The notes under the pieces: model-generated
Databases searched by the model: none
What the model saw: the letters and a program-made list of their open reading frames with translations, nothing else
Told to the model about the DNA's origin: nothing
From: Nitratidesulfovibrio vulgaris str. Hildenborough
Lineage (GTDB): Bacteria; Desulfobacterota; Desulfovibrionia; Desulfovibrionales; Desulfovibrionaceae
DNA length: 32,000 nucleotides
NCBI RefSeq assembly: GCF_000195755.1
Contig: NC_002937.3
Location: 2,100,001-2,132,000 of the forward strand
Direction: 5' to 3'
Position numbers and translations under genes: made by a program
Part shown: piece by piece, positions 1 through 18,656 of the stretch
How positions within the stretch are numbered: position 1 is the stretch's first letter
Layout: each line of letters begins with the position of its first letter

Positions 1-758
1 CCCGAGAGGGTCTCGAAGCCGCCCTCGAACTGACGGCTATCCTTCCAGCGCTTGAGAAACACCAGGGCGTCGCCGGTCAGTTTCACCTGGCCGTCGGTGC
101 CCATGGCGTAGCAGGACTTGAACAGCTCGATGGCGAAGTCGCGGATGCCCGGTTCCTCAGACTTGTAGCCATAGCAGCGGGTCATCTGTTCCCAGAGGAA
201 ACCGTCCAGGCTGCACCGGCCAACCAGCTTGATCTTCTCGTCGCGACCGTCGGCCAGCTCCTGCAGCAGGTTTTCCACCACCGCATCCATGCGCGGCTCG
301 CTGCCGGTGCATACCGCCAGCATCTTCAGGCGAATCTGCCCGGCGGTGTCGTCGGCTTTCAGCAGCTTCTTGAGGGCGTCCTTGCGTTTGATCGCTTGAA
401 AGAACTCCGCATGGGCCTGCACCACATCCGTGAACTCCAGGCCGAGCTCCAGTTCGGACAGCCAGATGGCCACCTGATCGGTGCGGAACTCGCCGTGGGC
501 CAGTTGCACATCCAGCAGCCAGTTATCCAGATCGGCGGGCTGAGGGCCTTCTCGGTAGAGCAGGAATTTCTGTTCCGGTTGCTCGCGCAGCAGCTTGTAC
601 TTGATGCCGTACTCGTTGTTGGTCAGTTCCAGCTTTTCGACACCGGGTAGATGAAGTGCCTCGAAATCGTCGCGCAACTCCAGCTTGGCGTCGTACCAGA
701 AGACGATCCGGTGCCGGTCGAAGAGTTTGGTCAGGGCCTGGGCAATGCGGTCGTTCAT
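1..758 (-). CDS. pglZ: PglZ (BREX alkaline-phosphatase-superfamily protein), N-terminal 252 codons; gene continues beyond the left window edge
   Basis: Absent from the ORF track because it is truncated. Hand translation of the minus strand from ATG 758..756 gives MNDRIAQALTKLFDRHRIVFWYDAKLELRDDFEALHLPGVEKLELTNNEYGIKYKLLREQPEQKFLLYREGPQPADLDNWLLDVQLAHGEFRTDQ... I checked every in-frame triplet back to nt 3 and found no stop. The N-terminal pattern and the position after pglX match PglZ as I recall it. The ATG overlaps the stop of the upstream gene (ATGA, 755..758). Confidence 0.8.
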   Translation of the reverse strand, partial: MNDRIAQALTKLFDRHRIVFWYDAKLELRDDFEALHLPGVEKLELTNNEYGIKYKLLREQPEQKFLLYREGPQPADLDNWLLDVQLAHGEFRTDQVAIWLSELELGLEFTDVVQAHAEFFQAIKRKDALKKLLKADDTAGQIRLKMLAVCTGSEPRMDAVVENLLQELADGRDEKIKLVGRCSLDGFLWEQMTRCYGYKSEEPGIRDFAIELFKSCYAMGTDGQVKLTGDALVFLKRWKDSRQFEGGFETLS

Positions 759-1222
759 GAAAGATTCCTTGAACCGCGAAAGGCGCTAAAATCGCGAAAA
801 TTAGAGTTAGCAATGCGAACGATTTCAACTTTTGGATATGCGCCGAAGTTGACCAGCAGGCCGAGTTCAAGACCCGTCGCCTTGAGGTAGTTCAAAAGCT
901 GGGCTTTATGCTCTGAAGCAATCTCTTTAACCGATTTCAACTCAACAATAATATTGCCGTAGCAGATAAAGTCGGGCTTGTAGGTTTGAGATAGGGGCTG
1001 GCTTTTGTATGACAGAAGAAGCTCCTTCTGGGCCTCAAACGGCAACTCCCGTGATCTGAACTCCTTTTCCAGACACTCCTGATAGACAGCTTCAAGGAAC
1101 CCGCAGCCCATTTCTCGATATACCTCAAAGATCGCTCCCTGAATGGCATAGCATTCATCTTTGAAGAGAAGTTCTTCTTTAGCGCCTTTCGCGCTTTTTG
1201 CGGTTAAATCTTCGTGGTTCAT
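755..1222 (-). CDS. GxxExxY family protein (PD-(D/E)xK fold), inserted between pglX and pglZ
   Basis: 155-aa ORF. The core AIQGAIFEVYREMGCGFLEAVYQECLEKEF...KPDFICYGNIIVELKSVKEI..HKAQLLNYLKATGLELGLLVNFG carries the G-x-x-E-x-x-Y signature (GFLEAVY) plus a D...ELK nuclease-fold motif. Its ATG shares one nt with the pglX stop (TGATG at 1220..1224). Its stop overlaps the pglZ ATG. It is visibly AT-richer than both neighbours. Confidence 0.85.
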   Translation of the reverse strand: MNHEDLTAKSAKGAKEELLFKDECYAIQGAIFEVYREMGCGFLEAVYQECLEKEFRSRELPFEAQKELLLSYKSQPLSQTYKPDFICYGNIIVELKSVKEIASEHKAQLLNYLKATGLELGLLVNFGAYPKVEIVRIANSNFRDFSAFRGSRNLS

Positions 1223-4200
1223 CAGTCTTCCTTGGCATCGAGTCCGGGTATTTTCTTTAATGCAGATCCGAGTTTGGGGTAGTTGACCTTCACGCCGTCG
1301 TCGAGGTCGATCTCCACCTGCTCGGTGGCCAGCGGGTAAAGCACCTCGCGCTCGTACTCCTCCATCTCGGCGATCATCTTGGTGATCTTCTCGATCTCCT
1401 TCAGGGCCTTGGTCTTCTCGCCCTGGCTGCTGCTGGCACTGATGCTGACCGCCTCCAGATGGTTCTTGTGCGAGGTGAGCTTGGTGCGGAACTCGCGCAG
1501 GTAGTCGTTGAGCACCACGCTGGCTGTATCCGGGCGGTAGCGGTGCATGTAGATCAGCGCGTTGAAGCTGCCCTTGGGGCTGGAGAACAGCCAGTAGATG
1601 GGGCGCTTTTTGTAGCGTTTCACATGATCGGTGTAAAACTCGCCAAGGAAGTAGTCGCGGATGCTGTAATTGCGCTTGCCCTTGATGTTCAGTGCCTGCT
1701 CGACGAACCGGAGGTTGGCCTCGTAGTGCTCCTCGCCAAAGGCCACACGCAGGAACTTGCGGAAGCGCTCGGCGATGTCGTCGGTGAACCAGTCGCCGTC
1801 CAGCATGGGGATGACGTTGTCGTCATCGGCTGGGAAGCTGGGCTCCGGAACCCGCTTTAGGTAGTCCTCGATGGTCTCGCCCTGGTTGGCCAGGATCAGA
1901 CCCGGCTTATCCAGCGCATAACGTCCAAACATGCAGCCCACGGCATAGGAAACCAGCTCCCGCATGGTGTCGGCCAGCAACAGAGCCTCCAGTTCATCCT
2001 CGCTCTTGTCATTGCCGTAGCGGTAGTGCGGGTTGCAGGTCAGGGTTATCTCGTTGAGCGGTACTTCGGGCTTTAGTTCATCCTGCAGGCCGTAGGCGTC
2101 GATGAAGGTGCGGTTGTTCTCTTCCTCCAACCGCTGCATCTCAAGTGTCATCTCTCGCCAGTGGGCGCGGAGCTTTTGGTAGGTAGTCTTTAGAGTTGGC
2201 TGGCGGTAGTCGGGATTTAGCACTGGAAGGCTGGTGAAGTCCCAAGAAGTTTCATAGGAATCCCAGTCATTTTTTGATAACGAAACTAACGTTGATGCGT
2301 TATTTGAAGCGCTTGGGTCTACTTCGAGAACAGGAATCTTCGCAACATCGCCCACCTGAAAATGGAATGATGCATTGATAAGCGATAGAAGATAGTCAAA
2401 AAGCCGTGTATTGCTGTAGGCAAGCAATACCATTTGCTTGTTTCTCGGTGGATAGAAACAGTGACCAGAAATATCGTGAAATGTGTCGTCAGGCGCATAT
2501 CTGGCGTTAAATGGTCCAGACGTAAGATCCGTCCATGTGCATTTTGCCTCTTTAAGCTTTGTCTCTGGCAGAACTGTAGCGTTTGGCTGCTGCTTTATAA
2601 ACTGAGGGTTCTTGTTATACCTCAAGAGGTAGTCAAGATTGCCATACCACCTCCTAAAGGCTCCCCCTTTAAGATATTTGATCCATTTTGGAGGCATCTC
2701 TTCATCTTTGAATTCATGAAATGAGACCTCGGGCCAGAGTCGCAAATACTTGTCGTTGTTTGACGTTTGCATACCGACTTTTGGAAAACCAACGTCGCCA
2801 AATGGAGTTCCTTGCGCAAAAGCGTTCCTAACTTTTTCACTGATCCAATATGCAATTGGGCGGCCAGGTATTGTGTCAAAATCGTCCGACGAAGCTAAGT
2901 AAGGTCGGCCCTTTAATTCTTTTAGCTGATTTGACTTTTCTTGCTCATCCTCTCCATCAACGAGCCGAAGATATGTTCCTTTATATTCTCTATCAGCAAT
3001 ATTCTTACAGATGAAAGCCGTTGTAGAAACCACTTCGCCACCGATTGAATCAAAGGCACGAGCGCCAAGATGCGCCATGCTCACTATGGAGCTGTTGGAT
3101 AAAATATTCGACCTTAAATTCTCGAATGTAGAAAGAAACATCCACGACTGCATTGTGATCATAGCGACGTATGCGGAATCTTTAGCTAAGTCCACATTGC
3201 GTTCGATAAACATTGCAAACAGGTCAGTCTTGCTTCTTTGGTAGCTGTCTTTTGCTAATACCTGCAAACGACCATTCATGCTGCGCTTGCCCATATACGG
3301 CGGATTGGCAATCACCACATGGTATTTCGGGCTCAGGTAATCGGCCTGTCGCAGGGCTTGCAGCACCTTCTGATGGGTCATGCTGATAAACAGCTGCCCG
3401 GAGACGTTCTTTGACTCCAGAATTCTGAGCATGCCGTCCACGTCGGTGACATCCGGGCGGATCAGGGAGCCGAAGTTGTCGGCCTCTTCGAACTGGCGCA
3501 GGGTGGTCTGGAGCGGCGCGGTGAACAGGTCGCGACCGACAAAATCCATGTAGTCCTTCAACTCATTGCCGTCGAAGTGGACGTTCTCCAGCACGCAGAT
3601 GTTCGGCTTGACACCCTTGTTGAAGAATCGGCGCTGCTTTGAGCGGGCCTTCATGGTCAGGGCAAAGGCAGCCAGTTCCCCGGCGCGTTCGTCGATCTCG
3701 ATGCCGTAGAGGTTATTCGTGAGGATCTTCTCCGGAATCTCGGCGGGCTCGTAGCCTTCCTCCTCGTAGATGGCGTAGAGGAGGTCGAAGGCATAGGTGA
3801 GCATGTGGCCGGAGCCGCAGGCCGGGTCGCAGATCTTGATCTCCTCCGGCTTGGCGATGCGCAGGAAGTCGGTTTCCGCCTGTTCGGGCTTGATGTAGTA
3901 GTCCATCTGCTCAACCAGCTTCGAGCCGGGACGATTGAGCAGCCACAGACGGCCGAGGGAGTTTTCCACCAGGTAGCGGACGATCCAGTGTGGGGTGAAG
4001 AGCTGGGTGGCGGCCGGGATGTTCTCGGGCGTGATCTTCTTGTTCTTCTTCAGGCCGTCGAACACCTCGTCCTTCTTCTCGGAGATGTAGAACTGGTAGA
4101 GCCAGCCGATCACCTCGACATCCTCGCAGGCATCCGGCGTCATCGCCTCGCGGGTGTAGGCGAGTATGGAGTTGCCCGAGAGTAGGTCGTCGGGCATCAG

Positions 4201-4698
4201 CAGTTCGGTGTAGTCATCGATGCGCTGGAACAGGAACGGCATGGCCTTGTTCCAGAAGTTGCAGGCGGCCACGACCAGCAGCCGGTAGGCCTCGCCCTGC
4301 GGGTCGCGGCTGGGGGCTTTGCCATCGAGCAGGGCAAATATCTGCTGCCGGACCTTGCCTGACACCATTTCTTCGTCGATGTGGCCCATCTTGGCCTCGG
4401 CCAAAATCTCGGGCTGGAACTGTCCCTCGGCGGGCGACACCACGCCGATGCGGGTGTAGCGGTTCACATCCATGAAACGCAGGGCGCAAAAGCGGTTGAA
4501 CCAAATGTAAGCTACCCGGTCAATAACCTGTTCCTTGCCGCGCCCCTTGATCGCCTCCTCAAGCTTCTTAACGGCATCGGCACATTCACGCCGAGCCGCG
4601 CTGTTTTCAGCCAGCACCAGTTTTAGCTTGGCGGAGACCTGTTCCAGCAGGCTGCGGCGGGCGAACTGGGCGAATTTTTTTAGTTTTGCGGTTTCCAT
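1222..4698 (-). CDS. pglX: PglX, BREX N6-adenine DNA methyltransferase / specificity subunit
   Basis: 1158-aa ORF. The N-terminus METAKLKKFAQFARRSLLEQV...DRVAYIWFNRFCALRFMDVN is PglX-like. It has the AdoMet motif DPACGSGHML and the catalytic NPPY (VVIANPPYMG, nt 3295..3306). It sits in a brxABC...pglZ context. Confidence 0.9.
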   Translation of the reverse strand: METAKLKKFAQFARRSLLEQVSAKLKLVLAENSAARRECADAVKKLEEAIKGRGKEQVIDRVAYIWFNRFCALRFMDVNRYTRIGVVSPAEGQFQPEILAEAKMGHIDEEMVSGKVRQQIFALLDGKAPSRDPQGEAYRLLVVAACNFWNKAMPFLFQRIDDYTELLMPDDLLSGNSILAYTREAMTPDACEDVEVIGWLYQFYISEKKDEVFDGLKKNKKITPENIPAATQLFTPHWIVRYLVENSLGRLWLLNRPGSKLVEQMDYYIKPEQAETDFLRIAKPEEIKICDPACGSGHMLTYAFDLLYAIYEEEGYEPAEIPEKILTNNLYGIEIDERAGELAAFALTMKARSKQRRFFNKGVKPNICVLENVHFDGNELKDYMDFVGRDLFTAPLQTTLRQFEEADNFGSLIRPDVTDVDGMLRILESKNVSGQLFISMTHQKVLQALRQADYLSPKYHVVIANPPYMGKRSMNGRLQVLAKDSYQRSKTDLFAMFIERNVDLAKDSAYVAMITMQSWMFLSTFENLRSNILSNSSIVSMAHLGARAFDSIGGEVVSTTAFICKNIADREYKGTYLRLVDGEDEQEKSNQLKELKGRPYLASSDDFDTIPGRPIAYWISEKVRNAFAQGTPFGDVGFPKVGMQTSNNDKYLRLWPEVSFHEFKDEEMPPKWIKYLKGGAFRRWYGNLDYLLRYNKNPQFIKQQPNATVLPETKLKEAKCTWTDLTSGPFNARYAPDDTFHDISGHCFYPPRNKQMVLLAYSNTRLFDYLLSLINASFHFQVGDVAKIPVLEVDPSASNNASTLVSLSKNDWDSYETSWDFTSLPVLNPDYRQPTLKTTYQKLRAHWREMTLEMQRLEEENNRTFIDAYGLQDELKPEVPLNEITLTCNPHYRYGNDKSEDELEALLLADTMRELVSYAVGCMFGRYALDKPGLILANQGETIEDYLKRVPEPSFPADDDNVIPMLDGDWFTDDIAERFRKFLRVAFGEEHYEANLRFVEQALNIKGKRNYSIRDYFLGEFYTDHVKRYKKRPIYWLFSSPKGSFNALIYMHRYRPDTASVVLNDYLREFRTKLTSHKNHLEAVSISASSSQGEKTKALKEIEKITKMIAEMEEYEREVLYPLATEQVEIDLDDGVKVNYPKLGSALKKIPGLDAKED

Positions 4699-4702
4699 CT
4701 AT

Positions 4703-5242
4703 TTAGGCTCCTCCGGCTGCAGCAGCGGCCAGGCGGGTGACCGGCCACTTGGGGAAGTTTTCATTCCATTTGTCCAGGTTGACGACATGACAGCTTGTAG
4801 CCAGGGCCTGGACCCAGCGGCGTGATGCTCTGCCCACCGGCAGCTCCTGTTTCAGGGATTTCTGCATCCGGCTGTTCAAGGCGTTGTCAAAGGTGATCAG
4901 GCAGACGTAGTGAACCGGCTTATCCACCTTCTGCTCGGCATGCCGGTAGAGGTAGGAATCCCGGAACTTGTATTTCAGGTAGTTCTTCAACCACTTGAAG
5001 CTGGCTTGCCGCGAGTTTGTCTCGTCTTCGGTGGACGCGCCAAGGACGTCATAAATCGACGGGTCGTCGTAGTCCTTCAGCTCCACGTAAACATAGGCCT
5101 CAGCGAACTCGGCGACGATGTCGACGCCTTTCATGGGCGCACCGTGGAATGTGGGTTTGGTGCTGTCCGTCTCGTCGAAGACGAATGCGTCCAGAGCATC
5201 CTCAAAACGGAATTCGAAACCGTCAGCCTCAACGATCTTCAT
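4703..5242 (-). CDS. Small PD-(D/E)xK (restriction-endonuclease-fold)-like protein, partner of the upstream ABC ATPase; function unknown
   Basis: 179-aa ORF. ATG 5242..5240 overlaps the stop of the ATPase gene (ATGA). Stop TAA 4705..4703 lies 4 nt before the pglX ATG. Residues 39-57, GVDIVAEFAEAYVYVELKD, give D41-x12-E54-x-K56 on two predicted beta strands, the classical PD-(D/E)xK signature. I saw no HNH, TOPRIM or GIY-YIG motif. The assignment is motif-level only. Confidence 0.7.
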   Translation of the reverse strand: MKIVEADGFEFRFEDALDAFVFDETDSTKPTFHGAPMKGVDIVAEFAEAYVYVELKDYDDPSIYDVLGASTEDETNSRQASFKWLKNYLKYKFRDSYLYRHAEQKVDKPVHYVCLITFDNALNSRMQKSLKQELPVGRASRRWVQALATSCHVVNLDKWNENFPKWPVTRLAAAAAGGA

Positions 5243-6303
5243 TTACCGAGGCCCCCCATGTCGTTTTCGATCTCCTGGTTGATGAGAAAGCCAAAGGCCT
5301 CGTCAATCGGGTTCGGCGTGATTTTCAGGTAGTCCTCGGTGGAGGCGACTTTGATCTCGGAGGTGTCCGCATCACGGTACAGGCTGTGGAAACGCACGTG
5401 GTCATCCTTGCCCTTGTCCATGAGCAGATCGAACCACTTGAGCAGCACATAATCGTGGGTCGCCAGAATGATCTGCTGGCCGTTGCGTGACAGCTCCAGC
5501 AGGATCTGCACGAGCAGCTTCATCAGCTTAGGGTTCAGATTGGATTCAGGCTCGTCCCAGAACAGCGGGCCACTGACACCGGGCTGGATCGCGCCGGTCT
5601 CCAGCAGGCGGGAGAGTATCCCCGCCTTGCGGAAGCCTTCGGCCATGGAGTTGGCGGAGTATTCGGCATTCTCGGTTTTGAAGGTGACCTTGCCGCCACC
5701 ATAGAAAACGAAACGGCCGCCGCAGATGCCTTCGATCTCGGCCATGGCCCATTTGGATTTTTCGTGCAGGGTCTCCGGACGGACTTCCGGGAGATCCAGC
5801 AGCAGACAGATATCCTGATAGGTCTGGTCAAAGGAGAGCCCGTATTTCTCGTACAGGCTGTTGAACCCCTTCATGAACGAGAGGACTTCCTTGGTCGGGA
5901 TGAATACCGCCTCGGCCTGGTACTTCTCGTAGTTGGCGCGATCCTGAACGGCCAGCGCCTTGGAGTTGTTGAAGAAGGTCGCGGCGATCTTCTGCCCCCC
6001 AGCGAACTTCGCCGACAGATAGGCCTGGTCGGTCGCGCCCTGGCGATGCATCTTGCCGAGCTTGTCGTCCAGCGGCATGAAGAGGCGCAGCAGCTTGGCG
6101 GTCAAAGCGGCTTCGAGCTCATCGTCGCCGGTATCGGGCTTGTTCTTAAACAGGGGCGCACCGGCGCACAGCCCATAGGCCGCCTTGAGCAGATGGGTTT
6201 TGCCGGTACCATTCTCGCCAATGATCACGTTGATTTTTGGCGAGAGCTCCAGTGTCAGGCCGGTGAATACCGTGAGGTTTCTCAGTTCAAGACGCTCGAT
6301 CAT
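5239..6303 (-). CDS. SMC/RecF-head-like ABC ATPase (AAA15/AAA21-type), embedded in the BREX operon
   Basis: 354-aa ORF with Walker A GENGTGKT (res 29-36, nt 6196..6219), signature-like SMAEGFRKAG, Walker B/D-loop PLFWDEPESNLNP and H-loop ILATHD. The N-terminus MIERLELRNLTVF...INVIIGENGTGKTHLLKA is RecF/SMC-like. The ATG overlaps the brxC stop (ATGA 6300..6303). Confidence 0.85.
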   Translation of the reverse strand: MIERLELRNLTVFTGLTLELSPKINVIIGENGTGKTHLLKAAYGLCAGAPLFKNKPDTGDDELEAALTAKLLRLFMPLDDKLGKMHRQGATDQAYLSAKFAGGQKIAATFFNNSKALAVQDRANYEKYQAEAVFIPTKEVLSFMKGFNSLYEKYGLSFDQTYQDICLLLDLPEVRPETLHEKSKWAMAEIEGICGGRFVFYGGGKVTFKTENAEYSANSMAEGFRKAGILSRLLETGAIQPGVSGPLFWDEPESNLNPKLMKLLVQILLELSRNGQQIILATHDYVLLKWFDLLMDKGKDDHVRFHSLYRDADTSEIKVASTEDYLKITPNPIDEAFGFLINQEIENDMGGLGK

Positions 6304-9300
6304 ATTTGAATCCTTTTTCCTTTGCGGATTTCATCCAGCAGCGCCTCGCGCATGGATTCCAGGTAGCGTTCCACGTCGGTCTCGTCGGCCAGCCAGGCCT
6401 TGTCGAAAGAGACCTTCACCGAGCGGCTGGGCACGTACTCGATTCGCGGTTCCGGCTTGACGGGTGGCGTGGGGCTCAATCCTGCATCCGGCGTGGCGGT
6501 TTTACCGGGTTCCGGCGCAGGCTCTGGTGCCGGTGCCGGTTGCGCCCAGGAGGTCATCTGCGAAAGCAGCCGCTGGTAGTCGCTTTCCTCAAACCGGCGC
6601 AGGGTATCGCGGATGACGGCAATCAGTTTTTGGCGCTCTATACCTGAGTCGAATTCGTTGAACGGACGGGTGATCTGCTCCTGCTGCTCGCCGTTCAGTG
6701 CGCCGAACTCAGCCATGCCGCAGAGGCGGGCTTTGAGGGCGGCGACCGCTTCCTTGGCCTTGGCAATCTCGGCTTCGATCTGGGCAGCGACCTTCCCCTG
6801 CAAGGTTTCGACTTGCGTCTTCACCTGCTGCATGCAGTTGCCCTTGAAGCATTCCGGATCGGTCAAACAAGCGACCACCTGTGCGGCTTCGTCGCCTTCG
6901 AGGTAGGCGAAGTTGGGCTCCTGGGTTTGAACGAACTTGCGGGCGTTATCGAAAATGTCTTTCTGCGGGCCGTTCATGAACTTGCGGACAGGATCGATGA
7001 CGCTTTCCTTCATAGTCAGCAGCGCGTCTTCCTGGCGGGTGAGTTCGGTCAGGTACCAGGTGTAGGGCTTACCGCTCAGCGCCTTGAGCTTCTCAATCAC
7101 CGGAGTCAGCGTATTCAGGAATGGATACTGGGATGCTTGGGCAGCAAGCGGGCTGAGCTGATGCATGAGATCCTGGAGCGCGGTGCCGGTCTCCTTGCCG
7201 AGCGCCTTCGCTTCACTGGCGCGGGGCGGGGCATCGAAGAAGTCCTCAAAGAATTCCTTGAGGGCGCGGACCTGCGATGCGGTAAATTCGACCTGGGGCT
7301 CCAGCACCACATTGCCGTGGCCATGGGTGTTGCGCAGCACCCGTTCCAACTCGTCCTCTTCCAGCAGATTGCCGTCGGCGCGAACCTCGACCTTGCCGCG
7401 AGCGCACAGGTTGGCCAGAGTGCAAAGCACGGCGGCGTAGTACCAGCCGTAGGGTTTGCGCTCGAATTTCTCCAGCAGGTTTTTCAGCGTGCTACGCACG
7501 CCCCCCCGGTTATTACTCTGAATGAACGCCAACAGCTCTTGCTCGGACTCGGCCAGGTGGGTGACGTCGTTACCGAATAGCCCATGCTGCGAGTGCTTGA
7601 GGCATTTGGCGATGTCGTTCTCGGTATAGGTGATGCCACGCAACATGCGAAGGTTCGGATAGGCGCGGGAGATGAGCTCATGAAATCCGCGCAACACCCG
7701 AGTCTGCGCATCCTCGGAACCGATTTCGATGTCGGCACCTGCCACGAACAACTTGGCCTTGCCCATCAGGCTGTGAACGCGCTGCAGCAACTCGGCATAG
7801 CGTTGCCGGTTCTGGAAGCCCTTGTCGGTCAGGATGCGTTTCACCGCCTCCTGCTGGGTGATCGAGATATTCTGACGGATGTATTTCTCCGTCCGCTTGT
7901 ACATGAGGATGTCGCGGACGAGGCGTTCGTCCGCAGGCAGCAGGACCAGCAGTTCGTCTCGGCCCGTGTTCTGCAACTGCAGGATGGACTCGCTTTCGGC
8001 ATTTTCATGGAACGGGCTGATGACATGGATGGCCAGCTCGTACTCGCGCCCGTGCAGTCGATCATCAAGTTTTCTGGAGAACGGGTAGTCCTGACCATTT
8101 TCGTCGTAGCGGATCTTCCGATGCTTGATGACGTGGTCGAAAACGATCTTCTCAAGCTCGGCGGCAACGTCTGACGACTCCACCTCGGTGTTCTTGATTT
8201 CCTGTTCGACGTCTTTTTCCTCGTCGGTCAGGTACTCGTAGAGATCGCCATTGCGCTGCACGTAGGTCTGCTGTTCCAAGAGGCTGAGAGCTTCCTCGAC
8301 TCGCTTCCTCAGCGCGGGCAGATCCTGATTGAAACCGTCGAGCATCAGGACGCAAAGGTTGCGAACGGTTGGCTTGAACTCCTTGACGTACTTGACCAGG
8401 AAAAGTGTTTTCAACAGCCGAATCGCAAAGGGACCATCCAGATGGTTTTCTGCCTGGATGATGGCCCGCTGGATATTGGATTTCAGCGCGCTGCGGATGC
8501 CTTCGAACATCAGGTCGAAGGTCGCCAACTGACCGATTTCATGCCCCCCGATCTGAATCGCAACCTGCTGGAACACCCCAAGCATGGAACGTTCGCCCAC
8601 CGAGCTGTGCTTGCCCTCAAAGGCGTTGTGCTGTGACAGATTCTGAATAGCCGACTGGAACAGCGCGAACTGGTACGGAATGAACGGATAGCTGTGAATG
8701 AAGTGGTCCCGATCCTGATAGTTCCGGTAGGTTTGCGAGCCGTCGGCAAAGTCGAACAGAGTCTTAAAATTGTTGGACTGCGCGTAATAAATATCCGAAA
8801 GCAGACGAACGCCTTCTTCGGTTTTCATCAGCAGACGCTTCTGGATGACCTCCGCCACGTCGGCGCTGGTCAGCTTCATGCGGTTGGCGAACCGCGCTTG
8901 GATCTTCGAGAAGTCGTTGCCTTGCTGTTTGCCCATCTCGCCGACAACCGTTCCCATGTCCTCCTGGGCGGTCACGATGACCCATGCGCGGCCTCGGCAT
9001 TTGGTGGCCATGCTCTCGGCGATGGTCTGGAGGTTGGTCATCAGCTTGATGTTTTCAGCGATGTACTGACCGACCTCATCAACAAAGAAGTTCAGACGGA
9101 AATCAGGTGATTGCCGCTCGATATACGCATGTACCTGCTCGGCAAAATCTTCGATGGAGACACGGTACTGGCTGCGATATTTATCGAGTATCCCCATGGC
9201 CGATGCTTCGTCACCACCGGTTGCATGGGCATAGGCTTTAGCAATGCTTTTCCCTTCCAGCAGAGCTTGCTCGCGGCCCTTTTGCCATGTTCTCCCCGCA

Positions 9301-9851
9301 GTGGATTCATAGGCCGACTTGAACTTGTCATAGAGGCCACGGCTGTCGAGATCGCGCTCGAATTGGGCGATGTGCCCCTGCTTGCCGTAGTAACCGCACA
9401 TCTCGTCAAAGACCTTGACGAAGACAGCGAGGAGCGCATCGATCTGGGTCTTGCTGATGACATCCGCTTTCTGGTCGATGTTGAACAGAATACTTTTCGA
9501 CGGGATGGCAACGGCTCGCTTGAGATCACCGCGAAGGATTTCGTTGTCGCCACACTTGGGCAGGAACAGGTCAAGAGCCGAGGCCCCGTCGATCTGCCGG
9601 TTTTCGAGCAAGAGCGCCAGCATCTTTAACAGGTGGGATTTACCTGATCCGAAGAAGCCGGAAACCCAAACGCCGTTGGCACCTTCATAGTTGTTGTAGG
9701 CATCAAGAAAGGATTCAAGCCGTTTCTCGACTTCGTTGGTCAGTACGTATTCTTCAATTTCGAGGCGAAGGCTGGCTTCATCGTCAGCTTTGATGACCCC
9801 TTCAATCGGGCGGTCAACTGGCTTGTTAAAAATGGTCTTAAGAGTCATCAC
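6300..9851 (-). CDS. brxC: BrxC/PglY, large BREX P-loop ATPase
   Basis: 1183-aa ORF with Walker A GFFGSGKSH at residues 65-73. The N-terminus MMTLKTIFNKPVDRPIEGVIKADD is typical of BrxC as I recall it. It starts 11 nt after the brxB stop. Confidence 0.9.
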   Translation of the reverse strand: MMTLKTIFNKPVDRPIEGVIKADDEASLRLEIEEYVLTNEVEKRLESFLDAYNNYEGANGVWVSGFFGSGKSHLLKMLALLLENRQIDGASALDLFLPKCGDNEILRGDLKRAVAIPSKSILFNIDQKADVISKTQIDALLAVFVKVFDEMCGYYGKQGHIAQFERDLDSRGLYDKFKSAYESTAGRTWQKGREQALLEGKSIAKAYAHATGGDEASAMGILDKYRSQYRVSIEDFAEQVHAYIERQSPDFRLNFFVDEVGQYIAENIKLMTNLQTIAESMATKCRGRAWVIVTAQEDMGTVVGEMGKQQGNDFSKIQARFANRMKLTSADVAEVIQKRLLMKTEEGVRLLSDIYYAQSNNFKTLFDFADGSQTYRNYQDRDHFIHSYPFIPYQFALFQSAIQNLSQHNAFEGKHSSVGERSMLGVFQQVAIQIGGHEIGQLATFDLMFEGIRSALKSNIQRAIIQAENHLDGPFAIRLLKTLFLVKYVKEFKPTVRNLCVLMLDGFNQDLPALRKRVEEALSLLEQQTYVQRNGDLYEYLTDEEKDVEQEIKNTEVESSDVAAELEKIVFDHVIKHRKIRYDENGQDYPFSRKLDDRLHGREYELAIHVISPFHENAESESILQLQNTGRDELLVLLPADERLVRDILMYKRTEKYIRQNISITQQEAVKRILTDKGFQNRQRYAELLQRVHSLMGKAKLFVAGADIEIGSEDAQTRVLRGFHELISRAYPNLRMLRGITYTENDIAKCLKHSQHGLFGNDVTHLAESEQELLAFIQSNNRGGVRSTLKNLLEKFERKPYGWYYAAVLCTLANLCARGKVEVRADGNLLEEDELERVLRNTHGHGNVVLEPQVEFTASQVRALKEFFEDFFDAPPRASEAKALGKETGTALQDLMHQLSPLAAQASQYPFLNTLTPVIEKLKALSGKPYTWYLTELTRQEDALLTMKESVIDPVRKFMNGPQKDIFDNARKFVQTQEPNFAYLEGDEAAQVVACLTDPECFKGNCMQQVKTQVETLQGKVAAQIEAEIAKAKEAVAALKARLCGMAEFGALNGEQQEQITRPFNEFDSGIERQKLIAVIRDTLRRFEESDYQRLLSQMTSWAQPAPAPEPAPEPGKTATPDAGLSPTPPVKPEPRIEYVPSRSVKVSFDKAWLADETDVERYLESMREALLDEIRKGKRIQI

Positions 9852-9862
9852 GCTTCCCTCGT

Positions 9863-10474
9863 TTATACTTCGCAGTGAAAGATGTTGAACGCCCGGTAGT
9901 ACTTGTCGTCATGCAGCCTTCCGAAGAGATCGAGCGATGCTCCAGACTCCAGGGAGTGGGTGTAGGCTCCTGGGAAAAACATGACGGTCGGCTTTTCTTT
10001 CGCCGTGCTCTGCAAATTGTTCAAGACGTTGTGCGAACGGATATAGGGGAACACTTCGCCAACGCCGGACAGAAAAAGAACCTCGAAATCGATGCTTGCC
10101 AGTTTGGCCGCAATCGCCGGAACAAGATGCGCTTCGGGGTCCAGCACGCCTTGCAACAGTTCTTTGAGCTGCTCTTTGGAGACTGAATCCTCCATCTCGA
10201 CAATCTGGTCCCAGATGTCACGCTCTTTGAGTATTTCTATCGAAATGTCATACAGATTGATTTCCAGAATCCGAATACCGGCCTGCTCAAGGCGATTAAC
10301 CAGCTGACGCTGTAGCCGCTCCATTTCGACGGACTCTTCCGGCTTGTAAGGGCAGATAAAGAACGGGACCTCGTTGCCGAGACCTTGCTTGTTGAGAAAA
10401 CGCTGGCCTGAGATCACAGCAAAGAGATGCTGAAATCTGTCCTGCATCGGCATTCTGGCTATATCTGCTGTCAC
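9863..10474 (-). CDS. brxB: BrxB (DUF1788 family)
   Basis: 203-aa ORF. NEVPFFICPYKPEE...LFLSGVGEVFPYIRSHNVLNNLQ...PTVMFFPG matches my memory of DUF1788/BrxB. Its start shares one nt with the brxA stop. Confidence 0.85.
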   Translation of the reverse strand: MTADIARMPMQDRFQHLFAVISGQRFLNKQGLGNEVPFFICPYKPEESVEMERLQRQLVNRLEQAGIRILEINLYDISIEILKERDIWDQIVEMEDSVSKEQLKELLQGVLDPEAHLVPAIAAKLASIDFEVLFLSGVGEVFPYIRSHNVLNNLQSTAKEKPTVMFFPGAYTHSLESGASLDLFGRLHDDKYYRAFNIFHCEV

Positions 10475-11085
10475 TACGCCATCCCCTCCACGTAGGGTTC
10501 AAAGATAGGGAAGTATAAGAGCTCACTGCGGCTACCTTGATGAATTGCTTCTAATAGTCGCGGGCTGAGCATAGCTGCTTGTATCAAGTTGTTGGGCGAA
10601 AGGAGGTCGGCCTCACGAAGTATCTTGAATAGGACTTGTCGCAGTTTGCATCGCGTTGCGGGTGTGATCTCGTCCAATTCCAAGTGCCATTCGGATTTCC
10701 GGTTGAAGAAGGAATCAAAATCTTCGTTGGTCAGATCAGTTTTCAGTGTGATGTAACGCTCTCTAAGCACTTCGACGGCAAAATCAGCAATAAATCTGTA
10801 CCGACGACAAACTGCGAGCCAAAGGAGATACGCCTGCTCTTGGTGGCTTCCACCAACAAGGAATGCAAGTTCGTCTGGGCTAAACGTCCTCAATCGAGAG
10901 AGTACCTCGCTGAAGACTCGTTTGAGCGTATTCAATGTTCTGGTTTGTAGTAAATTTTCTGCGATGACCTTGCCTCGAACAGAATTCCAATCTCCAAGGT
11001 CAAGATATAGCGTGGCCAGTTTCACCGATTCATGAAGAAAGAGGCCGCCTGTTGTAAAAGACATAATGTATCTAAATCTAACCAT
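10474..11085 (-). CDS. brxA: BrxA (DUF1819 family)
   Basis: 203-aa ORF and first gene of the operon. Its size and position (before brxB) and its helical, Leu-rich sequence (FTTGGLFLHESVKLATLYLDLGDW...) fit DUF1819. The start is uncertain: ATG 11085 or ATG 11064 (MSFTTGG), and neither has a clear SD. Confidence 0.75.
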   Translation of the reverse strand: MVRFRYIMSFTTGGLFLHESVKLATLYLDLGDWNSVRGKVIAENLLQTRTLNTLKRVFSEVLSRLRTFSPDELAFLVGGSHQEQAYLLWLAVCRRYRFIADFAVEVLRERYITLKTDLTNEDFDSFFNRKSEWHLELDEITPATRCKLRQVLFKILREADLLSPNNLIQAAMLSPRLLEAIHQGSRSELLYFPIFEPYVEGMA

Positions 11086-11167
11086 GCCAATAAAGTCCGT
11101 TTGATGGTGGTCGGGCCTGATATCGTCGACAATCTTTTTTTCGCATCTAAACGCCTTTTACTCCACA

Positions 11168-11380
11168 CTATCGATATAATTCTTTGGCTTTCCCAAGCTC
11201 CTGAACAATCTGCTGTCTCAGGTGTTGAGGGGAGATCAGCTCAGCATGGGTGCCAAAGCTGAGCACCCATGACGTCAACTCGGCTTCACTTCGGGCTGCA
11301 AGCTCAAGGATGACACCGCCGTCTTCTTGCGCAGTCAGTGACTGCTCCGTGCTCCATCTTCTCTCCCGTATATATGGTGC
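11168..11380 (-). pseudogene. brxR: 3' fragment (last 68 codons + stop) of the IS-split WYL regulator (brxR-like)
   Basis: The frame reads ...APYIRERRWSTEQSLTAQEDGGVILELAARSEAELTSWVLSFGTHAELISPQHLRQQIVQELGKAKELYR*. It joins in frame to the 5' part at 12692 once the IS and one copy of the 5-bp duplication are removed. Confidence 0.85.
11376..11380. repeat. Target-site duplication GGTGC (left copy)
   Basis: Identical pentamers lie immediately outside both IS ends (11376..11380 and 12692..12696). Confidence 0.85.
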
Positions 11381-11439
11381 TGGAGTAGCCCCCAATTAGG
11401 CCGGACCTCTCTGCCAACCGAAGAGGTAGTGCTAGAGGT

Positions 11440-11838
11440 ATGTCCAGACAGAGTGCTAAAGAGATTTCCACGGTCGAGGTCGTGACCATGGTTCAACGTC
11501 GTCGTTGGACCATTGCCGAGAAGCTACGGGTAGTTGAAGAGTCGTCTTTACCCGGAATGAGCGTCTCCTTCGTGGCTCGCAAATACGGCATCGCTCCGAA
11601 TCTTGTCTTTCGATGGAGAAAGCTCATGAGCGATGGCGGAAAAGTGGCTATTCAGGCCGACGACCGAGTGGTGAGCGTGGCAGAGGCGAAGGCTTTGAAG
11701 AAGCGCATTCGGGATTTGGAACGGCTTCTCGGCCGAAAGACGATGGAAGTCGAAATCCTGAAGGAAGCTATCGACATTGCACGCGAAAAAAAACTGATCT
11801 CGCGTTCGCCGTTGCCATTCGAGGACGGTTCCCTATGA
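11440..11838 (+). CDS. IS3-family transposase OrfA (HTH protein, InsC-like)
   Basis: 132-aa ORF. ...RRRWTIAEKLRVVEESSLPGMSVSFVARKYGIAPNLVFRWRK...LERLLGRKTMEVEILKEAIDIAREKK parallels IS2 OrfA. An SD-like AGAGG lies before the ATG. Confidence 0.9.
   Translation: MSRQSAKEISTVEVVTMVQRRRWTIAEKLRVVEESSLPGMSVSFVARKYGIAPNLVFRWRKLMSDGGKVAIQADDRVVSVAEAKALKKRIRDLERLLGRKTMEVEILKEAIDIAREKKLISRSPLPFEDGSL
11786..11793 (+). promoter_or_regulatory. A8 slippery run, probable -1 programmed frameshift site producing OrfAB
   Basis: GAAAAAAAAC lies near the 3' end of orfA, and the orfB frame is already open upstream of it (frame open from 11613). Confidence 0.55.
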
Positions 11839-12677
11839 AGCGTGTAGCGGACTCCCTGCAAGTCTCCCGTTCGCGTTTGGCAGAGCGGCTTGACGGTCCA
11901 CATCGTACCAGAAAGCCTCGTTACGTGAAGGCGCAGGATGAGGAATTGCTTCGTCTCATCCGTGCCATTCTTGATGAGCGGCAAACCTACGGCTATCGGC
12001 GGATACAGGCGTGCCTCAATGCCCATTTGAGAGCTACAGGGCAATCTGAAGTCAATCACAAGCGCGTTTACCGCATCATGCGGATGAATGGCCTGTTGCT
12101 CACCCGTCATAACGGCAAACGTCCAGACAAGGCGCACGAAGGCAAGATTGTTACTCTGCACCGCAATACACGATGGTGTTCTGATGGGTTTGAGATCCCA
12201 TGCGATAACCGGGAGGTCGTGCGTGTCGCGTTCGTCCTCGATTCGTGCGACCGGGAAGTCATCAGCTACGTTGCGACGACCAGGGGCATCTCAGGCTCTA
12301 TGGTCCGCGATCTGATGCTGGAAAGCGTGGAGCGCCGATTCGGCAATGCGCACACGTCCCATACAGTGGAATGGCTTTCAGACAATGGATCTTGTTATAC
12401 TGCGAAGGAAACAGTGGAGTTTGCCTCGTGGCTAGGCCTGCGAAGCTGCTTTACCCCGGTGCGCAGTCCAGAGAGCAATGGCATGGCAGAGGCATTCGTG
12501 AAGACATTCAAGCGTGATTACGTTGACTGCAACATCTGTCCCGACGCACCGAGCGTTCTGAAGCGCCTTTCCGAGTGGTTCGAAGACTACAACGAAAATG
12601 CTCCACACAAGGGATTACGGATGCGCTCGCCAAGACAATTCATCCGACTGTCAGCAACCGCAGGGTGTCCGGTTTAG
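11835..12677 (+). CDS. IS3-family transposase OrfB (DDE integrase-fold catalytic domain, InsD-like)
   Basis: The ATG overlaps the orfA stop (ATGA 11835..11838). MKRVADSLQVSRSRL...YGYRRIQACL...NTRWCSDGFEI...VLDSCDREVISY...WLSDNGSCYTA...RSPESNGMAEAFVKTFKRDY is IS2 InsD-like, with D, D and E in the expected contexts. Confidence 0.9.
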   Translation: MKRVADSLQVSRSRLAERLDGPHRTRKPRYVKAQDEELLRLIRAILDERQTYGYRRIQACLNAHLRATGQSEVNHKRVYRIMRMNGLLLTRHNGKRPDKAHEGKIVTLHRNTRWCSDGFEIPCDNREVVRVAFVLDSCDREVISYVATTRGISGSMVRDLMLESVERRFGNAHTSHTVEWLSDNGSCYTAKETVEFASWLGLRSCFTPVRSPESNGMAEAFVKTFKRDYVDCNICPDAPSVLKRLSEWFEDYNENAPHKGLRMRSPRQFIRLSATAGCPV

Positions 12678-13482
12678 CGGGGGCAACTCCAGGTGCAACA
12701 GACCGATCGAAGCGAATGCGGGCCTTAAATGGCTCCTGCGGCATTAGTCCAAACAGCCCCTCTGCCTCGCTCGGAGGCAAAGGGAGATTGAATGTTCTGC
12801 GCGTAGGAATGACAGATTTGAATCTATGGAGTGCCAGCAGCATTGGATGTACTGGTTCAGGTGTTCCTTTAGGAGTAACTTTCCATGCAGATACATACAG
12901 CGCCTCGCGATACGCGATGATGCGCATGGGGGCGATTTCATGGAGCTTGGGCTGGTCCAGGTTTGCTGCAAGATATTCTATTTCACATACATGTTTTTCA
13001 CGAATCGACTGCAGTAGCGCGTCAAGAAAACCATGGAACGGTGTATAATCGATCTGGCCACGGACTGAAACCTGGATGTACGAGTCCATAGCTTGGCATC
13101 GCTGCTCTGGTTCCGGGAGGAGAACAGTTGTCTGGCGGATAGTTCGCGCCACAGATGCTCGGAGATCATCAGGAAGCAAATGCATAACGAGGTCACGGCA
13201 AAGAACAAGCTGGCTAATTTCGGCTGGGGTCAGAGAAACGTGTGGCTGCTTTTTTGGGGCGCAGATGCGATAAAAGCAGGTACGTGAGCGCGTTTCACGT
13301 TCAATCTTGGCTTCGTGGCTTAGTTCGATCTCTTCAAGGAGCCTAGAGATCGTTTGTTTGGAGCATTTGAATATCTGGGCAAGGTCCGGAAGGGAATACC
13401 ATTCCCCAGAGAAAAGTAGGAGGCTGAACAAGCCGAGAAGCTTGCGCGAAGGGGAGGCCTCTTGGTTGATCTTGCGGGGCAT
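12640..13482 (-). pseudogene. brxR: 5' part of the WYL-domain transcriptional regulator (BrxR-like), truncated by IS insertion; the current frame runs 16 codons into the IS
   Basis: The N-terminal wHTH is SLPDLAQIFKCSKQTISRLLEEIE. The central WYL-type beta domain is VCEIEYLAANLDQPKLHEIAPMRIIAYREALYVSAWKV...LALHRFKSV. Native sequence ends at ...FDRSVAP (nt 12692), followed by the IS-encoded GVAPAKPDTLRLLTVG*. It lies upstream of brxA and on the same strand. Confidence 0.8.
12692..12696. repeat. Target-site duplication GGTGC (right copy)
   Basis: See the left copy. Confidence 0.85.
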
Positions 13483-13504
13483 ACATGATTCTCCTAGGCG
13501 AAAA

Positions 13505-13516
13505 ATCTCATGAGAT
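13505..13516. promoter_or_regulatory. Perfect 12-bp palindrome ATCTCATGAGAT, 23 nt upstream of the brxR ATG; candidate operator
   Basis: The palindrome is read directly from the sequence. Its location between the presumed brxR promoter and the start codon would suit autoregulation. There is no functional evidence. Confidence 0.3.
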
Positions 13517-13913
13517 AATGCCAGATTATGGAATCAATGAGAAGTAATTTTGCGTTTACTGTCTTGGGCGTATCTACCGGATGTGCAACGGGGTGAGGCG
13601 GTCAGAGGGAAGTAATGAAAAAGGATTTGTAATTCACGATAGGGTCGATCTGCGTTGAGTAGCCCCTATTTGGCCAGTAGCACATTTTTGGGCACAGCTA
13701 ACCGCATACTGTGCAGCGACGGCCGCAGGACTTTCAATCCTCTTTGTCATTCCTGTCGCTGCAGCAAGACGGCACGAAGAGTATTGAGCAATGACCACAA
13801 GGGACACAGCGCTATAATCAACTGCGAGTCTGTATCCAGCAATAACTATTCGTAATTCATTATTTTTTAGATATATATTACACTTTTGAATCCCCAGCCT
13901 TTTACTTAAAAAC

Positions 13914-13950
13914 AGCCCTAATACCCTGTGTATCAGGGCTTTTCTCTTTC
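13914..13950 (+). terminator. Hairpin + T-run (AGCCCTAATA-ccctgtg-TATCAGGGCT TTTCTCTTT) directly before the ERF ribosome-binding site; terminator or leader attenuator
   Basis: The stem is 6 bp + 3 bp with one mismatch, with a T-rich tail at 13940..13949. It is preceded by a very AT-rich stretch (13861..13895). Confidence 0.35.
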
Positions 13951-13962
13951 CAAGGAGACGCC

Positions 13963-14676
13963 ATGGACAGTCTTCAGTACACCTCCCCAGAGGTCATCGA
14001 CCTCGCCAAGGCCCTCATTGCCGTTCAGCACACCCTGCAACCGGCCATCAAGGACCGTGAGAATCCGTTCGCCAAATCCCGTTACGCCACACTCAACTCC
14101 GTCATGGATTCCTGCCGCGACGCGCTGCTGACCAATGGCATCTGGGTGACCCAGTATCCGGTCCCGGCAGAGGTTGGGCACCTCGGCCTCGTCACCAAAC
14201 TCACGCACGCGGAATCCGGCCAGTGGCAGTCGTCGCTGCTGGTCATGCCCCTGCCCAGATCCGACCCGCAGGGGTATGGCAGCGCCATGACCTATGCCCG
14301 TCGCTACGCGCTTTCGGCCATGCTTGGCATGGTGACGGAGGATGATGACGACGGCGAAGCTGCTTCCAGCGATACGTCTGCCAGACCACGCGCAGCACGT
14401 CAGCCCCGGCAAAAGGCGGAAGGGAGCGCCGCAACTGCCCATGTACAGCCAGTTCCCCACACTGAGTCACGCCCCATGCCGCCAGACAAGGCCCTACACC
14501 CGGCCTTGGCATCGCTGCCAAAGCTGGATGGGGTAACCTACACGACGGCCACCACGCAGGATGGCCGTCTTTGCGTTATGGCGTCCGGCAACACGTCTGC
14601 CAGAAAGCAACTTCTTGGGGCAGCTGGCTTTCGCTGGAACCCGGAGCGAAAGGTCTGGTGGCGTTATGCCGACTGA
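13963..14676 (+). CDS. ERF-family single-strand annealing protein (recombinase)
   Basis: 237-aa ORF with SD AAGGAG. ...KDRENPFAKSRYATLNSVMDSCRDALLTNGIWVTQ...THAESGQWQSS...PQGYGSAMTYARRYALSAMLGMVTEDDDDGE follows the ERF superfamily consensus as I recall it. Confidence 0.85.
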   Translation: MDSLQYTSPEVIDLAKALIAVQHTLQPAIKDRENPFAKSRYATLNSVMDSCRDALLTNGIWVTQYPVPAEVGHLGLVTKLTHAESGQWQSSLLVMPLPRSDPQGYGSAMTYARRYALSAMLGMVTEDDDDGEAASSDTSARPRAARQPRQKAEGSAATAHVQPVPHTESRPMPPDKALHPALASLPKLDGVTYTTATTQDGRLCVMASGNTSARKQLLGAAGFRWNPERKVWWRYAD

Positions 14677-14695
14677 ACACGGTACCAACAGACAT

Positions 14696-14729
14696 GAAGC
14701 GGGGAGGGCCATACGGCTCTCCCCGCTTC
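14696..14729 (+). promoter_or_regulatory. Perfect 11-bp stem hairpin GAAGCGGGGAG-(12 nt)-CTCCCCGCTTC between the ERF and exonuclease genes
   Basis: Read directly from the sequence. There is no clear T tail (ATTCGTATGG follows), so it is more likely an RNA processing/stability or attenuation element than a strong terminator. Confidence 0.5.
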
Positions 14730-14747
14730 ATTCGTATGGAGCAATGC

Positions 14748-16019: not shown

Positions 16020-16387
16020 CCATGGGATACGTAAGCGATGTGGCGCTGTGCCTCTCAGGAGCAGCGGCCACCAGACTGAATGAAGCTCTCGTAGCGGCCA
16101 GACAGACCATGCCAACCACAAGCTATGAGGATATTGAACGCTTTCTGAAGTCGGCTCTGCAAGGCACGGACACGGATAGCGGCTGTGTCCTCTACTTCTG
16201 GGAAACCATCAAGTGGTACGATGAGTTCACCGAGGTGGGTTTTCTCAACAGGTTCGTCACCTCTTTAGACGGAGAGGAGTACCTGTTTCTCCGCATCGGA
16301 GAAGATCACGACGACAACGTCAGCACGGGCTGGATGTACGACAACCCGTTCGACGTGCGCATCGTGCGGGAAATCCAGTTTGCTTAG
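16016..16387 (+). CDS. Acidic 123-aa hypothetical protein, translationally coupled to the exonuclease gene
   Basis: The ATG overlaps the upstream stop (ATGA 16016..16019). By my count it has about 21 D/E versus about 9 K/R. I recognise no motif. Confidence 0.6.
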   Translation: MTMGYVSDVALCLSGAAATRLNEALVAARQTMPTTSYEDIERFLKSALQGTDTDSGCVLYFWETIKWYDEFTEVGFLNRFVTSLDGEEYLFLRIGEDHDDNVSTGWMYDNPFDVRIVREIQFA

Positions 16388-16900: not shown

Positions 16901-16902
16901 AA

Positions 16903-16921: not shown

Positions 16922-16978
16922 CTGTATACATTGCAAACATAGAGGTCAAGTTTCCAACCTATCGCACAAGGAGCCACC

Positions 16979-18647: not shown

Positions 18648-18656
18648 GAGGCAGAC

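Follow-up and report, generated by a model that had tools for sequence, protein, structure and literature searches.

The type 1 BREX (bacteriophage exclusion) operon of Nitratidesulfovibrio vulgaris str. Hildenborough carries two extra genes between brxC and pglX, which raises the question of whether they form a defence system of their own, and of which kind, or work as a part of BREX. The locus lies in the stretch of DNA analysed here (contig NC_002937.3, positions 2,100,001 to 2,132,000; 32,000 nucleotides, hereafter the window). A preliminary description, made from the sequence alone, had presented the pair, an ATP-binding cassette (ABC) ATPase and a small protein with a PD-(D/E)xK motif, as a candidate undescribed defence module. 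It now appears very probable that the pair belongs to HEC-02 (Hma-embedded candidate 02) and lies embedded in the BREX operon, where it would act as an independent second layer. HEC-02 is already catalogued and partly validated, and the BREX context for its class is published as well.

Assignment to HEC-02 and place in the operon

The assignment comes from searches against the profile library PADLOC-DB 2.0.0 (2023 database). The ATPase is matched over nearly its full length by the HEC-02A profile PDLC04213 (E=1.5e-117, residues 1-350 on profile positions 1-335 of 337), and the small protein by the HEC-02B profile PDLC04229 (E=3.8e-67, residues 1-172 on profile positions 1-169 of 171) as well as by eight further HEC-02B profiles. 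The gene order is also that of HEC-02, the two genes being adjacent and on the same strand, with the ATPase first and an overlap of 4 nt. Outside the HEC families, the ATPase is next matched by AriA (E=1.2e-20) and mad3 (1.5e-14), and also by AbiLi, PtuA, GajA and Old; these matches are about 100 orders of magnitude weaker and mostly limited to the P-loop or Walker B region. The claim that the module was undescribed fails because profile searches place the pair in an already named system, an outcome that the preliminary description had itself listed as refuting it. A further PADLOC-DB profile, PDLC04146, carries the label HEC-02B but its match is to the ATPase (residues 1-321, E=6.8e-62) and not to the small protein; this is probably a labelling quirk of the database.

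HEC-02 was described by Payne, Hughes, Fineran and Jackson as an ABC ATPase accompanied by a NERD-like PD-(D/E)xK protein (bioRxiv 10.1101/2024.01.29.577857). In that work, the HEC-02 pair of Dickeya dianthicola NCPPB 3534 lowered the plaquing of BASEL phages in E. coli; both genes were needed for protection, and single-gene mutants simply lost defence. The 'guilt-by-embedding' screen of the same authors was widened to BREX, DISARM and type I restriction-modification (R-M) systems, and their Table S8 gives for cassette CAS_00063 (FAM_00005>>FAM_00030) the decision 'Incorporate into HEC-02 model' (bioRxiv 10.1101/2024.01.29.577857). The window ATPase is 33% identical to the tested Dickeya ATPase over 296 aa (E=2e-51). 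The alignment of the small protein with the Dickeya HEC-02B is limited to the first 60 aa (27% identity, E=0.002), and it places D41, E54 and K56 opposite the D, E and K of the tested protein. A 2026 survey in Nucleic Acids Research, which is computational and pools several nuclease partners, found OLD-family ABC ATPases together with PD-(D/E)XK, HNH or PIN nucleases in BREX loci (594 taxa), and reads these dyads as backup, possibly suicidal, effectors with phage-sensing ATPases (PMC12839542). For ABC-ATPase-anchored conflict systems, that survey cites Krishnan et al. 2020.

The likeness to HEC-02 includes both layout and motifs, as in each case co-oriented, overlapping genes encode an ABC ATPase of ~340-355 aa and then a PD-(D/E)xK protein of ~170-180 aa, with full-length profile matches, a D...ExK motif and embedding in a methylation-based defence operon. 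The two differ in their host, since the tested Dickeya example sits in Hma, whereas the window's subfamily is found mostly in BREX. With the OLD-ABC ATPase and PD-(D/E)XK, HNH or PIN dyads of the survey, the pair shares both the architecture class and the host system (PMC12839542). PARIS also combines an AAA_15/AAA_21-type ABC ATPase (AriA) with a small nuclease and is known to be embedded in BREX loci, and its sensor-releases-effector logic is borrowed below as a model for HEC-02. However, the PARIS effector AriB is a TOPRIM/DUF4435 protein and the window effector a PD-(D/E)xK protein, for which no TOPRIM, DUF4435 or AriB match was obtained in Pfam or PADLOC; the ATPase, as seen above, is far closer to HEC-02A than to AriA. 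PrrC of the EcoprrI type I R-M locus is likewise an ABC-ATPase-containing effector nested in an R-M operon as a second defence line, a likeness to which one relative of the window pair, lying between hsdS and hsdR (L065), adds. Unlike the pair, PrrC consists of one polypeptide, which contains an anticodon nuclease domain and is physically silenced by the host R-M enzyme; HEC-02 is not known to depend on its host in this way. Related ABC ATPase heads occur in Septu (PtuA/PtuB), Gabija (GajA/GajB) and AbiL (PADLOC E=1e-9 to 1e-13), the PtuA and GajA profiles matching the N-terminal P-loop region only (~residues 1-43), but the partners are different: HNH in Septu, a TOPRIM fusion and a UvrD-like helicase in Gabija, and DUF4435 in AbiL. 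By Pfam, neither HEC-02 protein has an HNH, TOPRIM or helicase domain, and the absence of a TOPRIM or HNH effector domain from the small protein, already noticed in the preliminary description, holds in PADLOC too. PARIS, Septu, Gabija and AbiL were rejected as the identity of the pair because their defining partner domains are absent (Pfam, PADLOC).

The operon reads brxA-brxB-brxC-[HEC-02A-HEC-02B]-pglX-[GxxExxY]-pglZ-brxL (Table 1). Its brxA, brxB, brxC and pglX genes are identified unambiguously by Pfam, PADLOC and NCBIfam and are co-oriented in the window, as belongs to a type 1 BREX; in contig L071, with 100% identity over window 1-12691, the GxxExxY gene is followed by pglZ and brxL. 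The ORF (open reading frame) listing and direct reading bear out the layout first reported, that is, two extra genes between brxC and pglX, both ATGA overlaps, and the Shine-Dalgarno sequence of pglX in the last codons of the small gene: GGAGGAG lies within these codons, ahead of the pglX ATG, and the TAA stop of the HEC-02B gene is separated from that ATG by 4 nt (ATAG). The composition reported for the pair, like that of brxC and pglX and unlike that of the other insert, was likewise recovered. Its GC content is 0.565-0.579 and its GC at third codon positions (GC3) 0.74-0.80, in agreement with brxC (GC 0.566, GC3 0.73) and the 5' part of pglX (pglX: 0.542 and 0.71), as opposed to 0.459 and 0.51 in the GxxExxY insert (755-1222). 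Neither a promoter-like site nor a minus-strand terminator-like site was detected in window 4400-6800. On this gene layout, the two HEC-02 genes are predicted to be co-transcribed and translationally coupled with brxC and with each other.

Table 1. Coordinates of the HEC-02 pair, its motifs and the surrounding genes (window positions)
Feature	Position	Strand	Evidence or remark
HEC-02A, 354-aa ABC ATPase (OLD-like, AAA_21/AAA_15), proposed sensor/regulator	5239-6303	minus	
Walker A GENGTGKT, aa 29-36 (K35)	6196-6219	minus	G29, N31, G34, K35 invariant in 65 homologues
Variable central region, aa 45-215, proposed trigger-recognition module	5659-6171	minus	swapped between alleles
ABC signature-like SMAEGF, aa 219-224	5632-5649	minus	A221, E222, G223 invariant
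Walker B/D-loop LFWDEPESNLNP, aa 247-258	5530-5565	minus	W249, D250, E251, P252, P258 invariant
H-loop ILATHD, aa 279-284	5452-5469	minus	H283 invariant
HEC-02B, 179-aa divergent PD-(D/E)xK (restriction-endonuclease-fold) protein, proposed effector nuclease	4703-5242	minus	
Catalytic-type motif D41...E54-x-K56 on beta-hairpin (strands 42-45, 50-56)	5075-5122	minus	
ATGA overlap, brxC stop/ATPase start	6300-6303	minus	sequence ..AATATGATCGAG..
ATGA overlap, ATPase stop/nuclease start (translational coupling)	5239-5242	minus	sequence ..GGTAAATGAAGATC..
brxC, BREX P-loop ATPase, upstream host gene	6300-9851	minus	NCBIfam BREX_BrxC 1316 bits; PADLOC BrxC; Pfam BrxC domains
pglX, BREX-1 adenine methyltransferase, downstream host gene	1222-4698	minus	NCBIfam BREX_1_MTaseX 1448 bits
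brxB	9863-10474	minus	Pfam BrxB E=7e-43
brxA	10474-11085	minus	Pfam BrxA E=8e-53
GxxExxY/PDDEXK_3 gene between pglX and pglZ, outside HEC-02	755-1222	minus	Pfam PDDEXK_3 E=1.5e-42; TIGR04256
IS3-family element ORF, HTH_Tnp_1	11440-11838	plus	
IS3-family element ORF, rve	11613-12677	plus	
brxR part, N-terminal 280 aa	12640-13482		
brxR part, 75-aa C-terminal fragment	11168-11395		just upstream of brxA

The two proteins

That the first gene encodes an AAA_15/AAA_21-type ABC ATPase, as had been proposed, is borne out by its Pfam domains (AAA_21, E=1.6e-18; AAA_15, E=1.4e-12) together with the PADLOC matches, and the motifs quoted for the ATPase, like D41, E54 and K56 of its partner, are present at the residues originally given. 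Conservation of the ATPase was counted in 65 full-length homologues. K35, D250, E251, H283 and the A221-E222-G223 stretch are invariant in all of them, and the protein is therefore an ABC ATPase of the active type; it lacks a coiled coil. When the PDB was searched with the ATPase by phmmer, generic ABC heads alone were returned (EcfA, OLD, Rad50).

The ATPase is modular, with conserved outer parts (aa 1-44 and 216-354) and a central region, aa 45-215, that is replaced wholesale between alleles. Identity in this region is 17-27% in loci whose ATPase C-terminus is 47-82% and whose partner nuclease is 56-88% identical. In five loci compared with the window (L009, L011, L014, L015 and L023), aa 45-215 are 26% identical, the C-terminal part 76-82% and the nuclease 80-88%. 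With a cut-off of 45%, the 65 ATPase sequences comprise at least 8 insert types. The region between Walker A and signature has been described as the site of 'Insert 1/2' (bioRxiv 10.1101/2024.01.29.577857). From these comparisons we infer that aa 45-215 may constitute an exchangeable recognition module, carried by an engine/effector chassis that is itself conserved; we have not found allele swapping of this region beside a constant C-terminus and nuclease stated in the literature.

The small protein falls into no Pfam or NCBIfam family at a significant level, and at least 120 named homologues, among the matches listed, all bear the name 'hypothetical protein'. Its family is moderately large: clustering at 90% gave 466 matches, and at 50% identity there are 489 clusters. 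Among 94 aligned sequences, 27-94% identical to the window protein, D41 is the sole invariant residue; E54 and K56 reach a conservation of at least 90%, as do E45, F22, D23, K92, D95, W143 and W159. The AlphaFold2 model built on this alignment reached a pLDDT (predicted local distance difference test) of 95.5 and a pTM (predicted template modelling score) of 0.90; it superseded a model from a shallow alignment of 25 close relatives, with a pLDDT of 70.5 and noise-level Foldseek matches. In the model, D41 opens strand 42-45 and E54-x-K56 lies in the next strand, 50-56, so that the predicted hairpin has the arrangement typical of PD-(D/E)xK enzymes.

Searched with Foldseek against the PDB, the model gave top matches that were nearly all nucleases of the restriction-endonuclease (REase) fold, at weak scores (E=0.018-0.1; TM <=0.39). 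The best was the small subunit of R.BspD6I (E=0.018, probability 0.96), along with Can2 (probability 0.98); Nt.BspD6I, Cdn1, AF1548, Hjc resolvases, McrC, the RecB nuclease domain and HamA were also among the top matches. A Foldseek search of viral structures (BFVD) gave nothing significant, and a profile search of the PDB with the family alignment nothing meaningful (best match RsiV, E=0.04). As for the NERD label, Pfam NERD (PF08378) was not matched by the window protein at E<=0.1; it appeared sub-threshold in 3/94 relatives, with a best E of 0.016, level with UPF0102, Hjc and SduA_C. The sub-threshold Pfam matches of the 94 relatives (UPF0102, NERD, Hjc, SduA_C, PDDEXK_9 and DpnII) all belong to the REase fold. 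We conclude, with the predicted model in mind, that the small protein is likely a divergent member of the REase fold whose catalytic-type triad is intact, and that NERD specifically is not confirmed. The restriction-endonuclease-type identity proposed in the preliminary description thus holds in its conserved D41/E54/K56 core and in a model that resembles REase-fold nucleases, if weakly. Since there is no structure match at E<1e-3 and no significant Pfam family, the nuclease assignment rests on fold class and motif conservation.

Relatives of the pair and its relationship with BREX

A scan of species-representative genomes yielded 70 loci encoding relatives of the small protein, distributed among Proteobacteria, Desulfobacterota, Acidobacteriota, Planctomycetota, Cyanobacteria, Actinomycetota, Riflebacteria and others. 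A homologue of HEC-02A lies directly upstream of the nuclease gene in 69 of them, the exception being cut by a contig end, so that the ATPase is its conserved neighbour and the two genes are obligately syntenic. The BREX context is also common (56/70 loci, ~80%); because the sample was seeded with peptide patterns from close relatives of the window's small protein, this share describes the window's subfamily, not HEC-02 overall. In 45 of the 70 loci the host is a BREX-1 like that of the window, with the pair mostly between brxC and pglX. A further 11 have a divergent BREX, in which BrxC shares ~25% identity with that of the window and the pair again lies between brxC and pglX. This second clade, with weak BrxC and PglX tblastn matches, was considered as Hma and rejected, as PADLOC identifies it as divergent BREX. 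The 4-nt overlap of ATPase stop and nuclease start is kept in 64 of 66 measurable loci, and ~30 BREX-1 loci share the 4-nt overlap of brxC stop and ATPase start; for these two reasons the arrangement is not attributable to chance. In three BREX-1 loci (L017, L031 and L036) the pair stands between the halves of a split pglX. Away from BREX, it is found in a type I R-M system, flanked by hsdS and hsdR (L065), in six loci with no BREX gene within 10 kb (L043, L050, L052, L060, L061 and L067), and in L041 and L058, which are also devoid of BREX matches and whose neighbours have no PADLOC match.

Some relatives carry altered copies of the pair. In L042 (7625-10004) the ATPase gene is interrupted by an IS3-type element and the nuclease gene is intact; in L051 (8968-10001) the ATPase is fragmented, again next to an intact nuclease gene. 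In L037 (8940-12670) the whole pair is tandemly duplicated, the second nuclease copy being truncated.

The divergence of the pair was compared with that of BREX proteins, protein by protein, in 30 complete BREX-1 loci. HEC-02B divergence tracks that of PglX (rho 0.83) and BrxC (rho 0.75) about as BrxC tracks PglX (0.79), all of these being Spearman values that ignore shared ancestry, whereas HEC-02A tracks the BREX proteins poorly (0.40-0.55) because its central insert is swapped. HEC-02B is the best-conserved protein of the cassette, with a mean pairwise identity of 74% vs 62-69% for BrxB, BrxC and PglX, a fact that we have not found stated in the literature. It is 61-66% identical across the two BREX lineages, in which BrxC is only ~25% identical; the presence of the same brxC-pglX junction in both points to re-acquisition or retention at one spot.

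For HEC-02 as an independent layer, a course of action can be proposed that follows the example of PARIS and of further defence pairs with an ABC ATPase. An ATPase oligomer would hold the nuclease inactive, and the variable insert (aa 45-215) would recognise a phage-derived cue. ATP binding or hydrolysis would then release or activate the nuclease, which would cut nucleic acid and stop the infection. Inside BREX, the pair would be an independent second layer sharing the transcription and mobility of its host. Several points weigh against this account. Experimental testing is confined to the distant Dickeya pair, whose nuclease is especially distant (E=0.002 over 60 residues); the small-protein model lacks a PDB or viral (BFVD) structure match at E<1e-3 in Foldseek, and the protein itself a significant Pfam family. 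The sequestration-and-release step is drawn purely from analogy. Finally, the near-constant brxC-pglX position and the co-inheritance with BREX could reflect a closer functional tie than the word independent allows.

Such a tie is the content of the most serious alternative, in which the pair is functionally wired to BREX, either as a guard that might sense when BrxC/PglX are lost or inhibited (for example by Ocr-type DNA mimics or depletion of S-adenosylmethionine) or as a partner recruited for DNA cleavage. We regard it as unlikely, although it would account for the 56 BREX loci out of 70, mostly at the brxC-pglX junction and three times between split-pglX halves, for the identical junction in two lineages of dissimilar BrxC and similar HEC-02B, for the overlap of brxC with the ATPase gene in ~30 loci, and for a HEC-02B that is the best-conserved cassette protein and diverges in step with PglX and BrxC; the idea has also been raised in the literature for ABC-ATPase modules in BREX (PMC12839542). 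However, pairs of the same subfamily occur without nearby BREX genes and in a type I R-M locus, and the tested HEC-02 works alone in E. coli (bioRxiv 10.1101/2024.01.29.577857). Moreover, close relatives were sampled, so that the BREX enrichment may be due in part to the spread of a single successful cassette, and the divergence correlations ignore shared ancestry. In a more specific form, the BREX-resident HEC-02 would be a coupled guard with an exchangeable recognition cassette (aa 45-215), held at brxC-pglX by an expression or activation tie to BrxC/PglX. This version too is doubtful; if true, the guard might, for example, be set off once the complex has been disabled by anti-BREX proteins, and BREX, itself poor in nucleases, would gain a cleavage arm. 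The preliminary description had offered both a PARIS-like guard that fires when BREX is inhibited and a nuclease arm for BREX. The sensor/effector part of the first idea matches the proposal in the literature, while firing on BREX inhibition survives only as the improbable rival just described; the second is made less likely by the same-subfamily pairs that stand alone or in a type I R-M locus.

It is far less probable still that the pair is an addiction or toxin-antitoxin-like module, in which the ATPase restrains a nuclease toxin and the main role is stabilising the BREX island, not phage sensing. The Pfam annotation of AAA_21 ('putative AbiEii toxin, Type IV TA system'), a tight translational coupling that fixes stoichiometry, and a mobile context with insertion sequence (IS) elements, ERF, Fic and DUF3150 would agree with such a role, but intact nuclease genes persist beside ATPases disrupted by IS insertions (L042) or fragmented (L051), which argues against a constitutively lethal toxin, and single-gene mutants simply lost defence in the hands of Payne et al. 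(bioRxiv 10.1101/2024.01.29.577857). Lastly, that this is a truly undescribed system, as the family-less small protein and its 'hypothetical' homologues might suggest, can practically be discarded in view of the full-length HEC-02A and HEC-02B matches in a 2023 database and the published description, testing and BREX-embedded cassette (bioRxiv 10.1101/2024.01.29.577857; PMC12839542).

As a HEC-02 member embedded in BREX, the pair has small discovery value, being caught by a standard defence-annotation tool and belonging to a class published twice. Its value is that of a case study. The ATPase alleles form a series differing almost solely in the central cassette, which is ready-made material for specificity swaps; an effector better conserved than any BREX core protein is a useful handle; and the fixed, translationally coupled placement in BREX lets embedded layers be probed as independent of their host or wired to it.

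Neighbouring genes and strain differences

The GxxExxY gene downstream of pglX (755-1222) overlaps the pglX stop by 1 nt (TGATG), and its GC is markedly lower (0.46); it seems to have been inserted separately and more recently, as another small protein of the REase fold. The middle of pglX itself (window 2000-3300) has a GC of 0.43-0.46 and a GC3 of 0.50, vs 0.83 in the 5' part, and PglX is 54-85% identical to the window's in loci where BrxC and the HEC-02 proteins exceed 90%. The drop in GC and the low PglX identity together suggest a horizontally exchanged target-recognition region.

In the three loci with a split pglX (~7000-12500 in L017, L031 and L036), the N-terminal methylase half has 599 aa (Eco57I/MmeI_Mtase) and the C-terminal half 580 aa; the stop of the former and the start of the ATPase gene overlap, and in L017 a GmrSD_N (DUF262) gene follows. 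Extra genes are also embedded between brxC and HEC-02A. In six loci (~7000-8850 in L004, L020, L021, L023, L024 and L045), belonging to both BREX lineages, it is a gene for a Schlafen-AlbA_2 plus HATPase_c_4 protein of 557-589 aa, and in L006 (3805-7263) a DEAD-box helicase together with a DprA/SLOG-like gene. Several modules are thus stacked at the brxC-pglX junction. Desulfobulbus sp. Tol-SR has a divergent BREX (L040, 13918-16749) in which pglX and pglZ are separated by a TIR-domain protein and a Septu PtuA (E=1.7e-188); HEC-02 is also present between brxC and pglX, so that three defence layers are nested in one operon.

Upstream of brxA, the gene for brxR, the WYL regulator of BREX (window 11168-13482), is apparently split by an IS3-family element; its 75-aa C-terminal fragment is labelled WCX in the identical contig. 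The split could de-repress BREX and the embedded pair, or change their expression otherwise. Past brxR (window 13963-22463), the flank contains genes of mobile-element type: an ERF recombinase, an AAA_5/CbbQ ATPase, DUF3150, Fic and a VWA/CobT-like gene.

Window 1-12691 is 100% identical to CP002297.1 (assembly GCA_000166115.1), which we take to be Desulfovibrio vulgaris RCH1. The identity to this complete genome is lost precisely where the IS element lies (window 12691), suggesting that the strains differ by an IS-mediated rearrangement. One Logan contig (SRR12056526) is 99.985% identical to window 1493-15242. In another (L072, 10789-13288; Logan SRR12056385), whose locus is 99.99% identical, pglZ is predicted as two ORFs (437 and 391 aa) and not as one of 832 aa, which suggests a BREX-inactivating mutation segregating in that population.

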